DNA from: Candidatus Micrarchaeia archaeon
GTDB taxonomy: Archaea > Micrarchaeota > Micrarchaeia > Burarchaeales > JAVZCV01
Length of the DNA: 64,000 nucleotides
NCBI GenBank assembly: GCA_038874215.1
Contig: JAVZCV010000002.1
Span: forward strand, 6,664 to 70,663
Reading direction: 5' to 3'
A program made the position numbers and the translations under genes. This document shows positions 19,774 to 46,000 of this stretch, piece by piece (the first letter of the stretch is position 1; every line of letters starts with the position of its first letter). Below the pieces are notes generated by a model. The model worked only from the letters and a program-made list of their open reading frames with translations. It was not told where the DNA came from and ran no database searches.

Positions 19774-19862
19774 AGCGGGCCCGGAGGGATTTTCGCGTCC
19801 TATTTCGAACCCTCGACCTACTGGTTAAGAGCCAGCCGCTCTGGCCAAGCTGAGCTACGGGC
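19774..19862 (-). tRNA. tRNA-Lys (anticodon CTT) with a ~14-nt insertion/intron in the T-loop
   Basis: On the - strand the sequence is GGGCCCG-TA-GCTC-AGCTTGGCCA-GAGC-G-GCTGG-CTCTTAA-CCAGT-AGGTC-GAGGG-TTCGAA[ATAGGACGCGAAAA]T-CCCTC-CGGGCCC-G. All stems pair and the anticodon is CTT. The T-loop is 21 nt instead of 7. Confidence 0.8.
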
Positions 19863-19899
19863 CCAGATTATAAACTCTTCCATATAAACAATAATAAAC

Positions 19900-20943: not shown

Positions 20944-21051
20944 TAGCGGGAGGTGGATTTGAACCACCGATCTCTGGGTTCCTCAAAACGTTTTGGCATC
21001 GTCAAAGGTTTGTATGAGCCCAGCGGGCACTCCATGCTACCCTATCCCGCT
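20944..21051 (-). tRNA. Initiator tRNA-Met (CAT) with a canonical 33-nt intron at 37/38
   Basis: On the - strand the sequence is AGCGGGA-TA-GGGT-...-GCCC-G-CTGGG-CTCATA[33 nt]A-CCCAG-AGATC-GGTGG-TTCAAAT-CCACC-TCCCGCT-A. An A1:U72 pair and three G:C pairs at the base of the anticodon stem are archaeal initiator hallmarks. Confidence 0.85.
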
Positions 21052-43145: not shown

Positions 43146-43502
43146 TCATAGTATTGGCGTGCCTGCCTTCACATCTTTATCTACTGTTACCAATGATATT
43201 ATGCCTTCCGCATCACTTACTGCTGCGAGTAGCATGCCCTCAGAAAGTACGCCTCGCACATTTCTCGGCTCTAAGTTTTTAACGAGTATTATCTTTTTTC
43301 CTATCAGTTCGTCTGGCGTGTAGTGCTTTGCTATGCCCGCAACTATCTGCCTGCTACTGTTCCCCACATCCAGCGAGAGTTTAAGGAGTTTCTCCGCGCC
43401 CACGATTTTTTCCGCACTCTTTATCTCAGCAACTACAAGTTCAATTTTCTTGAAATCCTCATACGTTGCCATTCCATCACCTCTCATATAAACCCAAGGC
43501 AC
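43146..43502 (-). CDS. tRNA-binding domain protein (Trbp111/CsaA/EMAP-like OB fold)
   Basis: ...FKKIELVVAEIKSAEKIVGAEKLLKLSLDVGNSSRQIVAGIAKHYTPDELIGKKIILVKNLEPRNVRGVLSEGMLLAA... matches the Myf/Trbp111 domain. Confidence 0.7.
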   Translation of the reverse strand: MPWVYMRGDGMATYEDFKKIELVVAEIKSAEKIVGAEKLLKLSLDVGNSSRQIVAGIAKHYTPDELIGKKIILVKNLEPRNVRGVLSEGMLLAAVSDAEGIISLVTVDKDVKAGTPIL

Positions 43503-44146
43503 TCGTCTATCCTATGCATTTCAAAGCCGCTCGTTCCTTCCCCTACAACATAACCCTTTGAGTTTGCTATCATCCCAAGCGCAACAAACGGAATACCCAT
43601 ATTTATTGTTCCTATGCCAGAACGCACACCAAGTATCCCCTCAACAGCCCTCAATTCCTCATCACTTGCGTTGTTGTGCAATATAGCACCCCTGTTGGTT
43701 GCAACACAACAACTGCCAACCGTTTTATACCCCGCTATGCTCATCCTCTCCATCTCAACCCCTAGGCAATCGCTTATACCCTTTACTTCGTTGAGGGGTA
43801 CTGACTGGTTTACTATCCCCCCCTTATCGTTTGCGCAAATGTTCATGCCCACAGCACAGTATTTTGATTTAATTACATAAACGTTCAGCCCAGTTTTTCT
43901 CACCCTATTAATCTCTCCTTTCGTTACAAATGGTGGCAGTATTATGCCGTTTGAATTCATAACCGCATAAATCCCTATAAGGTCGCTGTTTCCAATACTC
44001 ATCTGAAACATCTCTGTTCCGAGCGCCTTGCAAGCATCTATAAACTTGCGATGGGCGTTTTCGCCGATTATCGTTATCTCATCATTCGTTTCAGCGAAAA
44101 GCCCGACTGCATCGTTCCCCCAAACCGACACCTTTCTAAAATGCAA
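43484..44146 (-). CDS. eif6: Translation initiation factor 6 (aIF6)
   Basis: Pentameric repeat pattern ...SIGNSDLIGIYAVMNSNGIILP... in 220 aa. Confidence 0.85.
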   Translation of the reverse strand: MHFRKVSVWGNDAVGLFAETNDEITIIGENAHRKFIDACKALGTEMFQMSIGNSDLIGIYAVMNSNGIILPPFVTKGEINRVRKTGLNVYVIKSKYCAVGMNICANDKGGIVNQSVPLNEVKGISDCLGVEMERMSIAGYKTVGSCCVATNRGAILHNNASDEELRAVEGILGVRSGIGTINMGIPFVALGMIANSKGYVVGEGTSGFEMHRIDECLGFI

Positions 44147-44512
44147 TCACTCACTCCCCGTTTTTTTGCTTTCCTCCCCTCTCTCTGGTTTTGTAGTCTG
44201 CTCTGTATCCTTTACTTCTCCTCCCCTACTCTTCTCCTCTTTAATTTTTTTCTCTGATTTAACGTCAGCAAGCCTCACGTTCACATAGCCCTCCTCCACA
44301 GATACCATTACTTTTACTCTTCTGGGTGGTTTCTTCATACCGCGGCTAAAAACATACTCCCCGATTTTGCCATCAATTCTAACTGCGTCTTCCTTCACTT
44401 TCATGTGCCTTGCTACTCCCACCCTGATTATTTCTATCGCCTTTCTCGCTCTCTTAGTTCTGGGCTGTTCGTAAGCGGAAGAAAGCGTTAAAGTGTAAAC
44501 TCTCTCTTTCAA
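44147..44512 (-). CDS. rpl31e: Ribosomal protein L31e
   Basis: MKERVYTLTLSSAYEQPRTKRARKAIEIIRVGVARHMKV... The stop is contiguous with the eif6 start. Confidence 0.85.
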   Translation of the reverse strand: MKERVYTLTLSSAYEQPRTKRARKAIEIIRVGVARHMKVKEDAVRIDGKIGEYVFSRGMKKPPRRVKVMVSVEEGYVNVRLADVKSEKKIKEEKSRGGEVKDTEQTTKPERGEESKKTGSE

Positions 44513-44520
44513 ACAACCAC

Positions 44521-44682
44521 CTACTCCAACTTCAATTTCAGTTTTCTCGCCCTCCAGTTTCTTGCCTTGACGTTTCTTTTTACCTTTCTATTCGTTTTCG
44601 CCATCACAAAAATCGGAACCCTTCTATTCTGCCTCAATTTCTTGCCCAGCCTTGCTTTTTTTTCAGCGCTTTTCTTCCCCAC
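44521..44682 (-). CDS. rpl39e: Ribosomal protein L39e, 53 aa, GTG start. Not in the ORF track.
   Basis: My manual translation is (M)[52 protein letters not shown], matching the L39e ...KQNRRVPvWVm.KTNR...RRHWRR.KLK signature. Confidence 0.65.
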
Positions 44683-44691
44683 CAAACCACC

Positions 44692-44997
44692 CTACTTCCT
44701 CCTTATCTCTATTCTCGTCTCTTTTTTAGTGCTAACGCGCGAAAGCAAATCTAAAAGCTTTTCATTGCTTATCTTGCCTCTAAGTTGGTTTGATTGTATC
44801 AGATATGCGATAAGCGATACAACCTGATTATACAATTCCGGGTTTGCAATCCTAACGTTCATCATTCTCTCGTATGCATCTGCTTCAAGCGCAGACTTAA
44901 GAATGAGCTTCCTCTGCTCTTCCATAGCAATCTCTTTTTGCAATCTCTCAATTTTTTTTCTTCTTAATTCCTCTATGTCCACCATTTCTGCACCCAT
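44692..44997 (-). CDS. PDCD5/TFAR19-like dsDNA-binding protein
   Basis: ...ALEADAYERMMNVRIANPELYNQVVSLIAYLIQSNQLRGKISNEKLLDLL... is PDCD5-like. It sits in its usual place upstream of L39e. Confidence 0.65.
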   Translation of the reverse strand: MGAEMVDIEELRRKKIERLQKEIAMEEQRKLILKSALEADAYERMMNVRIANPELYNQVVSLIAYLIQSNQLRGKISNEKLLDLLSRVSTKKETRIEIRRK

Positions 44998-45419
44998 TAC
45001 TTCGCTACATTCTTTATTGCTGCAGAAACCTCATTCAAAAAAGATATTCCTTTTTCTGTTAGCATTCTGCCATTTTTTGTCTTTTTTACAAAACCTATTT
45101 TTTCAAGCTGTTGCAACCCCATCCTTATTATTTTACCCCCAGCCTTCCCATGCCTCTCCGACCTACTTCCATGCTTTACCCTTCCGCCGTATGCCTTCCT
45201 AAAATCACCAACACCCATCGCACCGTTAACATACATCTTTCTGAGCATGGATGCGCAGCGAATATACCAGAAGTTCTTTTGTTCCGGAGCCCTCTCCCTA
45301 TGCGCACCGCTCTTTACGAATGAAAGCCATTGCGGTGCCTTAATTTCCCCGATTCCTTCAAGCCTCCTCGCAGTTTCCTCTATCAGCCTCTTTGCTGGAA
45401 CATCATACGGCGTTACCAT
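44997..45419 (-). CDS. rps19e: Ribosomal protein S19e
   Basis: MVTPYDVPAKRLIEETARRLEGIGEIKAPQWLSFVKSGAHRERAP... is present. 140 aa. Confidence 0.9.
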   Translation of the reverse strand: MVTPYDVPAKRLIEETARRLEGIGEIKAPQWLSFVKSGAHRERAPEQKNFWYIRCASMLRKMYVNGAMGVGDFRKAYGGRVKHGSRSERHGKAGGKIIRMGLQQLEKIGFVKKTKNGRMLTEKGISFLNEVSAAIKNVAK

Positions 45420-45428
45420 ATGCCCACC

Positions 45429-45734
45429 TCACTTGTAACCAAATCGCCTTTTTGCTCCACATTCACACACATACTCAACAACCCCTCTGCGAGGTAAGAG
45501 TCTAACACTCGCATTATAGCCTGGGATCAAAAAGGCATTACACTTTTTGCACAATCGCCTTTTTATCGTTTTCGGAATTCTGACGTTATACCTCCTCTCT
45601 ATTTTTCTTGCCAGTTCAACATAGCGTTTGCTTCTCTTTGGGTTCGTTTTGGCGTTTTCTTTGGCAAGGGAGCAGAGTATGGCGATCCTCTCCTTTGCAA
45701 TCGCCTTAACAATCGTCCGCCTGTTCGCCCCCAC
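45429..45734 (-). CDS. rnp4: RNase P protein subunit Rpp21/Rpr2 (Rnp4). Probable GTG start so that it does not overlap the tRNA.
   Basis: ...AKERIAILCSLAKEN...RYVELARKIERRYNVRIPKTIKRRLCKKCNAFLIPGYNASVRLL...YVCECG is a Zn ribbon. The track ORF extends into the tRNA gene. Confidence 0.7.
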   Translation of the reverse strand: MGANRRTIVKAIAKERIAILCSLAKENAKTNPKRSKRYVELARKIERRYNVRIPKTIKRRLCKKCNAFLIPGYNASVRLLPRRGVVEYVCECGAKRRFGYK

Positions 45735-45765
45735 TTCTACTCCCTTGTCTACGTAAAAGCAAACA

Positions 45766-45913
45766 TGGGCCCGGAGGGATTTCCGCAACCTTCATTCGAA
45801 CCCTCGACCTACAGCTGTCGCAAGCGCATGTGCTAGAGTGCGCCATATAAGACATGCGTACCGAAAGGCAAGGCATTTCGGTATGCCGCTCTAGCCAGCT
45901 GAGCTACGGGCCC
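45766..45913 (-). tRNA. Long (148-nt) intron-containing tRNA gene. Isotype unresolved, and it could be a disrupted gene.
   Basis: The - strand reads GGGCCCG-TA-GCTC-AGCTGGCTA-GAGC-G...[~76 nt]...AGGTC-GAGGG-TTCGAA[TGAAGGTTGCGGAA]T-CCCTC-CGGGCCC-A. The acceptor, D and T arms are perfect and nearly identical to the tRNA-Lys at 19.8 kb, including a 14-nt T-loop insertion at the same place. About 59 extra nt sit in the anticodon region. They form an 11-bp hairpin (GCATACCGAAA/TTTCGGTACGC) and a second helix (CGCATG/CATGCG). Confidence 0.55.
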
Positions 45914-46000
45914 ATATCTTTTCTAATTAAAATAAAATTATAAGCGCATCGGTTGTTCTAATACCTAAATCGTTTTATTTCTCACATTCGGAGCTGCTTT

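Follow-up and report, generated by a model that had tools for sequence, protein, structure and literature searches.

Judged by its sequence and by that of its orthologs, the 148-nt element described here is very probably a functional tRNA-Ile(UAU) gene, the AUA decoder of a member of the Micrarchaeia (DPANN), interrupted by three BHB introns at positions 29/30, 37/38 and 59/60. The source organism is a Candidatus Micrarchaeia MAG, and by the window we mean the whole 64-kb stretch of its DNA that was analysed. Once the three introns are removed, the remaining sequence forms a canonical cloverleaf and has the conserved tRNA bases. The feature lies far beyond chance: its 5' 19 nt occur twice in the window against an expectation of 0, and orthologs are present in other genomes. 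The entire gene is identical in an independent assembly, Logan SRR30574052.

Gene structure, neighbourhood and spliced product

An earlier note on this DNA had described a tRNA gene of 148 nt in which the acceptor, D and T arms are intact and the anticodon region has ~59 extra nucleotides, and this description is borne out. Read on the minus strand from 45913 to 45766, the gene starts with GGGCCCG-UA-GCUC-AGCUGGCUA-GAGC-G and ends with AGGUC-GAGGG-UUCGAA...U-CCCUC-CGGGCCC-A. Its acceptor, D and T stems are complete, the discriminator is A73, as had been read before, and 76 nt lie between G26 and the variable loop. The extra nucleotides amount to 74. The proposals of at least two introns and of a non-canonical intron inside the anticodon stem also hold, as the anticodon arm contains two introns, one of them at 29/30 in the 5' strand of the stem, and an intron in the T-loop makes three (Table 1).

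Table 1. Features of the tRNA-Ile(UAU) gene in window coordinates; index 1 of the gene is window position 45913, and the window coordinate equals 45914 minus the index.
Feature	Window coordinates	Strand	Basis
tRNA-Ile(UAU) gene, complete, 148 nt, 4 exons and 3 introns	45766..45913	-	Sequence, ARAGORN on the spliced product, orthologs
Exon 1 (index 1-30): acceptor 5' strand, D arm, G26, anticodon-stem G27 C28 A29	45884..45913	-	Alignment with orthologs without the first intron
Intron 1 (index 31-60): 30 nt, position 29/30, UACCGAAAUGCCUUGCCUUUCGGUACGCAU	45854..45883	-	30-column gap versus L001/L002; BHB geometry
Exon 2 (index 61-68): 8 nt, stem G30 U31 and C32 U33 U34 A35 U36 A37 (anticodon UAU)	45846..45853	-	
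Intron 2 (index 69-97): 29 nt, canonical position 37/38, UGGCGCACUCUAGCACAUGCGCUUGCGAC	45817..45845	-	Homologous intron in all orthologs; BHB counts
Exon 3 (index 98-119): A38, stem 3' strand GCUGU, variable loop AGGUC, T-stem GAGGG, T-loop UUCGAA	45795..45816	-	
Intron 3 (index 120-134): 15 nt, T-loop position 59/60, UGAAGGUUGCGGAAA	45780..45794	-	BHB geometry
Exon 4 (index 135-148): U60, T-stem CCCUC, acceptor 3' strand CGGGCCC, A73; no encoded CCA	45766..45779	-	
Putative archaeal promoter: TATA-like UUAUAA, -29..-24 from the first tRNA base	45937..45942	-	Predicted by sequence reading
Putative archaeal oligo-T terminator: T-rich tract UGUUUGCUUUU, directly 3' of A73	45755..45765	-	Predicted

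Pfam places an Rpr2/Rpp21 gene downstream of the tRNA gene and a divergent SRP54 gene upstream, in agreement with the location given in the earlier note. The seeming overlap of the Rpp21 ORF with the tRNA gene is an artefact of a TTG start. The exons match the tRNA-Lys(CUU) gene at 19864..19776 in 28/30 positions at the 5' end and in 18/18 and 16/16 positions in the 3' part. The near-identity to this gene that had been reported holds for the exons but not for the T-loop insertions, which are only ~10/16 identical. Both insertions occupy the same 59/60 site, as claimed, but the one in the Ile gene measures 15 nt and not 14 (its T-loop region spans 22 nt); 14 nt is the length of the Lys intron, which has a strict motif with H = UUCG/CGAA and the 5-bp T-stem as its outer helix. 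The two tRNAs differ in the discriminator (A versus G) and in the anticodon arm, and we take their near-identity to be that of acceptor, D and T arms shared by both tRNAs, not a sign of recent duplication. Comparable A/T boxes precede the Lys gene and the orthologs, and T-runs also close the tRNA genes of the orthologs.

All three tRNA genes in the 64-kb window are interrupted, and none is detected by default ARAGORN, which returned zero tRNAs across the window, or by Rfam, which at gathering and E-value thresholds gives no tRNA call for the locus. At permissive E-values, Rfam gave a partial, sub-threshold match of 26.9 bits, to the Lys gene alone. A blastn-short search with each intron against the 64-kb window returned no other copies.

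Splicing in silico yields a product of 74 nt, GGGCCCGUAGCUCAGCUGGCUAGAGCGGCAGUCUUAUAAGCUGUAGGUCGAGGGUUCGAAUCCCUCCGGGCCCA, which ARAGORN calls tRNA-Ile(tat); the program, proposed earlier as a check, misses the precursor in its default run and finds a valid cloverleaf once the introns are removed. The predicted splice junctions are ...GGCA|GUCUUAUA|AGCUGU... and ...GGGUUCGAA|UCCCUC..., and the spliced anticodon arm, GCAGU-CUUAUAA-GCUGU, presents UAU in a 7-nt loop with U33 and a purine at 37 on a stem of 5 bp. The conserved tRNA bases are all there (U8, A14, G18G19, G15:C48, U33, A37, G53:C61 and UUCGAAU). Base for base, the 74 nt are identical to the spliced product of L116, a one-intron ortholog whose SRP54 is 50% identical. 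Across 8 distinct spliced sequences, cloverleaf pairing is found in 100% of cells, compared with 25-49% in slid controls, and compensatory changes occur at 3/5 T-stem pairs. The combination of A73 and UAU is kept in all orthologs, and the acceptor stem is conserved too.

The anticodon could not be resolved by eye in the earlier note, which pointed to a comparison with orthologous loci, and that comparison now resolves it. When every one- and two-intron solution was enumerated for the 76-nt interval that separates G26 from the variable loop, 15 legal 5-7-5 arms with six anticodons emerged, including CTT, TTC, TAT, GCG and TGC, and ARAGORN accepts several of the alternative-register products; because there are 15 legal arms, legality alone leaves the anticodon undecided. 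The orthologs identify it as UAU, since they have the contiguous arm GCAGU-CUUAUA|intron|A-GCUGU; the UAU arm is found in 11 orthologous loci. A four-intron model with a CAUGU stem, which had no BHB and no ortholog support, was dropped. Among 68 window ORFs, AUA is used at 51 per 1000 codons and makes up ~60% of Ile codons. It is the commonest Ile codon in the window, and the gene would therefore be needed. A pseudogene is unlikely.

Splice motifs and distribution of the introns

Under the BHB rule that we applied, an exon ends with four helix bases and two bulge bases, an intron ends with the four complementary bases and two bulge bases, and the cuts fall after the second base of the 3-nt bulges flanking the 4-position helix. 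The splice sites demanded by the mature sequence are the BHB-symmetric positions in all three introns. Intron 1 forms a relaxed hBHBh' motif with H = GCGG/ACGC (3 pairs and a G.A), bulges CA|U and AU|G, an outer helix of 3 bp and an inner hairpin of 7 bp. Intron 2 has H = CUUA/UGCG (C-G, a U.C mismatch, U.G and A-U), bulges UA|U and AC|A, the anticodon stem as its outer helix and an inner helix of 6 bp. Intron 3 is a strict hBH, in which H = UUCG/CGGA is paired at 4/4 positions, the bulges are AA|U and AA|U, the 5-bp T-stem serves as the outer helix and there is no inner helix. The two helices that had been noticed in the anticodon region are real and correspond to the hairpin of intron 1 (A32-U54 to A38-U48, plus flanking pairs) and to the 6-bp helix from G70-U91 to A75-U86.

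A strict 3-4-3 hBHBh' motif is the requirement of alpha4 and alpha'2 enzymes. None of the three introns has this motif with four standard pairs: introns 1 and 2 have 3/4 central-helix pairs each, and intron 3 alone has 4/4, but without h'. Because the motifs depart from the strict requirement, a broad-specificity endonuclease is implied.

Across 9 orthologs, the hBHBh' structure of the 37/38 intron is 88.7% paired, compared with 29-43% when slid, with 34/36 cells paired in the H helix and double changes at 5/6 inner-helix pairs. The central helix is fully paired in 8/9 of these aligned orthologs, the exception being L014 with an A35.C, and the U33.C mismatch is specific to the window genome. 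The 37/38 intron of this Micrarchaeota subgroup presents a semi-conserved loop, YUCUAGCACA, on a covarying stem. For intron 1, maintenance of the helix by compensatory change can be read from two sequences, those of the window and of L068, whose hairpins are unrelated and which both pair.

The MFE structure that RNAfold gives for the 148-nt precursor is not tRNA-like at its centre, and the BHB helices were recovered neither by this fold of the whole precursor nor by RNAalifold on the intron 2 arm, because the 4-bp H helix is thermodynamically too weak. The 37/38 structure was scored by explicit pair counting in place of these programs. The precursor also holds a possible competing 7-bp helix, CGCAUGU/ACAUGCG, which joins the 3' end of intron 1 and exon 2 with intron 2, and a decoy BHB at 33|34-90|91 with a perfect 3-4-3 motif, H = GCAU/AUGC and an outer helix of 3 bp. 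The helix could compete with the correct fold, and it or the decoy could misdirect folding or cleavage. A zero-mismatch BHB filter misses introns 1 and 2 and picks the decoy.

Loci in other Micrarchaeota MAGs were reached with the neighbouring SRP54 protein as query, and in these orthologous loci tRNA-Ile(UAU) stands beside SRP54 and/or Rpp21. L001 and L002 have the same tRNA gene just upstream of SRP54, with the arm GCAGU-CUUAUA|30-nt intron|A-GCUGU. L125 and L127, the closest SRP54 relatives (64-65% identity), have a 101-nt gene with the 37/38 intron only, and one of the two shows the same Rpp21 <- tRNA | -> SRP54 arrangement as the window; both were found through the protein alone, independently of any DNA pattern. 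The other 4 of the 6 SRP54-neighbour loci looked up in this way (L126 and L128-L130) have no tRNA beside SRP54. A variable-gap pattern run against metagenomes gave matches that were mostly due to chance, and at least 8 usable archaeal orthologs were among the matches listed; L011, L068, L075, L113, L116 and L121 are complete, and L014 ends at a contig end. The pattern fixed the 5' strand and the loop of the anticodon arm, so that identity there is partly ascertainment in the loci it retrieved; L001, L002, L125 and L127 are free of this bias. Two intronless genes with an encoded CCA, also among the matches listed, are probably bacterial.

The 37/38 intron is present in every tRNA-Ile(UAU) ortholog examined, and the number of introns per gene ranges from one to three. 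L116, L121, L125 and L127 lack the T-loop intron; elsewhere it lies at 56/57 (L113), at 58/59 (L011, L068 and L075) or at 59/60 (the window, L001 and L002), with lengths of 15-161 nt. Among the loci found, with the metagenome matches listed included, the window and L068 alone have the 29/30 intron; five closer relatives, L125, L127 and L113 the closest among them, are without it. L068, whose Rpp21 is 44% identical, has a 30-nt intron at this site that shares the first base, the H3 strand ACGC and the bulges with intron 1 of the window; the two introns are identical in 11/30 positions, and the L068 hairpin, unrelated in sequence, pairs over 6 bp. Such a distribution would fit either a single gain with later losses or mobility. 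In the protein collection no SRP54 was closer than 65%, which leaves no close relative by which to date intron 1 and the U.C mismatch.

Proposed maturation and competing readings

We propose that transcription of the minus strand would give a 148-nt precursor, which would be cut 3' of the second base in every 3-nt bulge by an endonuclease that is presumably of broad specificity, like the epsilon2 enzyme of Ca. Micrarchaeum. An RtcB-type ligase would then join the four exons into the 74-nt cloverleaf, and CCA would be added after exon joining. The 37/38 and 59/60 motifs can both form within a cloverleaf-like fold. In the 29/30 motif, G24-G27 would pair with the 3' end of the intron, and because this requires opening of the D stem and of the upper anticodon stem, splicing is probably stepwise.

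Two further readings of the introns can be set beside this scheme. The 37/38 intron could be required, for example if modification of the wobble base U34, and possibly of U36, depended on recognition of the intron. Yeast Pus1 forms pseudouridine 34/36 only on the intron-containing pre-tRNA-Ile(UAU). The reading fits the presence of the 37/38 intron in every ortholog examined and its semi-conserved loop, yet we give it only a small probability; if true, such a modification would stop UAU from misreading AUG in a genome that uses mainly AUA for Ile. A milder reading takes the 29/30 intron, present in the window and in the diverged L068 and absent from the five closest relatives, for a recently mobile BHB intron, which would extend to DPANN the intron gain or transposition that has been recorded up to now in Thermoproteales.

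The functional-gene reading has to be weighed against the idea that the locus is a copy inactivated only recently, or that it is a decaying duplicate, as the earlier note had considered, in this case of a tRNA-Lys-like scaffold. The 30-nt hairpin and the U.C mismatch would then prevent maturation, and a tRNA encoded elsewhere in the genome would read AUA. The imperfection of 2/3 BHB motifs, the lack of the 29/30 intron in the closest relatives, L125, L127 and L113, and an MFE fold of the precursor that is not a cloverleaf would all suit inactivation. Against them stand the 74 exon bases, all intact and identical to those of the one-intron ortholog, and the 29/30 intron of L068, which keeps its BHB elements and a covarying hairpin and so points to selection for spliceability. 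AUA is moreover the most used Ile codon in the window ORFs, promoter-like and terminator-like signals are present, and relaxed motifs are normal substrates in Micrarchaeota (PMC3239211). We consider an inactivated copy quite unlikely and reject the decaying duplicate, given the identity of the spliced product to that of the one-intron ortholog, the covariation of both the cloverleaf and the intron helices and the dominance of AUA.

It is still less probable that the gene is spliced in another register, to give Glu(UUC) with introns at 31-44 and 54-98, Arg(GCG) or Ala(UGC) with a 57-58-nt intron and a 1-2-nt deletion, or a product cut at 33|34 and 90|91 with its anticodon deleted. These arms are formally legal 5-7-5 arms accepted by ARAGORN, and 33|34-90|91 is a perfect 3-4-3 motif, but they have zero ortholog support, as all orthologs have UAU in a loop that is either contiguous or interrupted at 37/38. 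Neither junction of the Glu register has a BHB, and the Arg and Ala registers need "introns" of 1-2 nt. Under the G3:U70 rule for the Ala identity pair, the G3:C70 of this gene also excludes Ala. The 33|34-90|91 product would have a 19-nt arm that does not pair, and its motif is weakly mirrored in L068, with G.U in 2/4 pairs. Finally, there is scarcely any likelihood that the insertions are something other than endonuclease-type introns (group I introns, box C/D RNA housed in an intron or a mobile insertion) or that the gene is split or permuted. Some euryarchaeal tRNA-Trp introns do house box C/D RNAs, but none of the three introns here contains a box C (RUGAUGA) or a box D (CUGA), and a guide RNA is further opposed by the lack of any significant snoRNA family, the best Rfam match scoring 14.2 bits against a threshold of 37. 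Group I introns occur in archaeal genes (PMC6125680), whereas insertions of 15-30 nt are far too short for them. A mobile insertion is opposed by the absence of further copies in the window and of any Rfam match, and a split or permuted gene by the four exons, which are colinear on one strand within 148 nt.

Relation to known tRNA introns

The functional tRNA-Ile(UAU) gene that we favour resembles AUA decoders of archaea without the agmatidine (TiaS) route in its UAU anticodon, its A73 and the heavy use of AUA. Nanoarchaeum and Korarchaeum have tRNA-Ile(UAU) as AUA decoder without the TiaS route. The GGGCCCG acceptor strand is common to archaeal Ile and Lys tRNAs. [quoted passage not shown] Disruption affects 56% of the tRNA genes of ARMAN-2 (Ca. 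Micrarchaeum), and the 59/60 intron of its tRNA-Cys was cleaved in vitro (PMC3239211). Compared by description and not by sequence, the ARMAN-2 gene and the window gene share the phylum, the isoacceptor Ile(UAU) and the canonical intron position; the short T-loop intron of the window is like that of the ARMAN-2 tRNA-Cys, a 59/60 hBH without an inner helix, and in both genomes interrupted genes are missed by standard tRNA finders. Unlike in ARMAN-2, the window gene unites the 37/38 and 59/60 introns and adds another, which lies within the anticodon stem at 29/30, and its canonical motif is relaxed by the U.C in H, whereas the ARMAN-2 substrate is described as strict. From what is published on related Micrarchaeota (PMC3239211, PMC5829648), the genome is expected to encode an endonuclease for relaxed or non-canonical motifs, of the epsilon2, (alpha-beta)2 or loop-bearing alpha4 type, and an RtcB ligase; the endonuclease was not seen in those parts of the window that were examined.

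Archaeal tRNA genes have one to three introns per gene (PMC3239211), three also being the maximum in PMC4033280, and 29/30, 56/57 and 59/60 are listed as non-canonical archaeal intron sites (PMC4090602). Like the multi-intron tRNA genes of Thermoproteales and other Crenarchaeota (Sugahara et al. 2007/2008, via PMC4033280, PMC4090602 and PMC3239211), the window gene has three BHB introns, which is the reported maximum, and its sites 29/30, 37/38 and 59/60 have all been published; in both cases there are relaxed motifs, and an alternative fold is needed at non-canonical sites. Unlike the Thermoproteales, the source of the window belongs to DPANN and not to TACK, its enzyme is presumably epsilon2 or a loop-bearing alpha4 and not (alpha-beta)2, and the other tRNA genes of the window have no similar introns beyond the weak 10/16 resemblance between the Ile and Lys T-loops. 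All three positions and the count of three introns are already known from Archaea; the mechanism is conventional for the phylum, and the current understanding of such introns is unchanged. With its three introns the window gene equals the highest count known, and for its phylum the papers cited here highlight two-intron genes.

According to the 2018 EndA paper, gaps in the tRNA sets of DPANN genomes are a sign of disrupted genes that have gone undetected, and manual curation is urged there (PMC5829648). The window illustrates why these genomes seem to miss tRNAs, as interrupted genes escape the standard finders. Translation of AUA in this organism would depend on three endonuclease-ligase reactions, one after another, on a single 148-nt precursor, two of them on imperfect motifs. 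With one to three introns and varied T-loop sites, the orthologs would form a natural series for the gain, loss and sliding of introns outside the Thermoproteales.

Introns of the tRNA-Ile(UAU) gene and its orthologs

The T-loop intron of tRNA-Ile(UAU) appears to slide among lineages and also varies in size. It comprises 15 nt at position 59/60 in the window gene, and it lies at 59/60 in the orthologs at loci L001 and L002, at 56/57 in that of L113, and at 58/59 in those of L011, L075, and L068, where it spans 36 to 82 nt. At each of these three positions, the 4-bp central helix (H) of the splice motif is completely paired in every T-loop intron. The length of the L001 intron is unusual for one in the T-loop.

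The 37/38 intron has a loop that is semiconserved among the orthologs and a stem that covaries. The loop reads CUCUAGCACA in the window gene, UCUAGCACA in L001 and L002, and CUCUAGUACA in L113. As judged from these sequences, the resemblance may be a simple effect of relatedness, or it could be the mark of a functional element.

A potentially competing helix, CGCAUGU/ACAUGCG, which may influence folding or the order of splicing, pairs the 3' end of intron 1 and exon 2 with the 3' strand of the inner helix of intron 2. Together with GCAU at gene indices 28-31 (index 1 being window position 45913), it produces a perfect decoy bulge-helix-bulge (BHB) motif at indices 33/34-90/91. This helix is not conserved in L068, save for a weak version with two G.U pairs.

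Features of the window and of orthologous loci
Feature	Location	Strand	Detail
tRNA-Ile(UAU) 37/38 intron	window 45817-45845	-	
Potentially competing 7-bp helix	window 45825-45858	-	gene index 56-89
tRNA-Met(CAU), initiator-like	window 20944-21051	-	intron-tolerant scan; confirmed by ARAGORN -i
tRNA-Lys(CUU)	window 19776-19864	-	ARAGORN call tRNA-Lys(ctt) after in silico splicing
tRNA-Lys(CUU) intron, 59/60	window 19790-19803	-	14 nt; strict hBH motif (no inner helix)
Translation/RNA-processing cluster	window 43484-45788	-	L124 gene calls
tRNA-Ile(UAU) ortholog	L001 2474-2739	-	T-loop intron, 161 nt at 59/60
tRNA-Ile(UAU) ortholog	L002 2772-2915	-	T-loop intron, 37 nt at 59/60
tRNA-Ile(UAU) ortholog	L113 493-629	+	T-loop intron, 34 nt at 56/57
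tRNA-Ile(UAU) ortholog	L068 6573-6787	-	T-loop intron at 58/59

Interrupted tRNA genes, codon usage, and the anticodon arm

All three tRNA genes found within the window carry introns, and the default tRNA tool detected none of the three in this stretch. The only signal that default tools gave for tRNA-Lys(CUU) was a subthreshold Rfam match (26.9 bits versus 29); in its intron motif, H is UUCG/CGAA and the T-stem serves as the outer helix. The initiator-like features of tRNA-Met(CAU) are A1:U72 and G29-31:C39-41, and its 33-nt intron at 37/38 has a strict BHB (H, CUCA/UGAG) with outer and inner helices of 5 and 4 bp.

Ile codons in the 68 longest open reading frames (ORFs) of the window are strongly skewed to AUA (967, with 361 AUU and 284 AUC), at a G+C content of 44.8% for the whole window. 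The GCAGU-CUUAUA anticodon arm is not unique to Micrarchaeota, since among the listed metagenome matches to a DNA pattern fixing its 5' strand and loop, L020 and L108 resemble tRNA-Ile(UAU) genes, carry this arm, and lack introns. Both encode CCA and are probably bacterial.

Gene neighborhood and the start of Rpp21

The cluster downstream of tRNA-Ile(UAU) is conserved and encodes Rpp21, S19e, a PDCD5-like dsDNA_bind protein, L39e, L31e, and eIF6; on the plus strand nearby, the same gene calls place SRP54, an MscS-type channel, and a glycosyltransferase. The TTG start of the mechanical Rpp21 ORF (45429-45788, minus strand) falls within the tRNA gene. A GUG near 45733 (minus strand), with a Shine-Dalgarno-like AGGGAG motif in front of it, is the probable true start; Rpp21, which shares its strand with the tRNA gene, would thus begin about 33 nt past the tRNA 3' end. 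A pre-tRNA that undergoes extensive processing is therefore followed immediately by the gene for a subunit of RNase P, and the same order of tRNA and Rpp21 is found in L068 and in L125, an ortholog located through its SRP54 protein.
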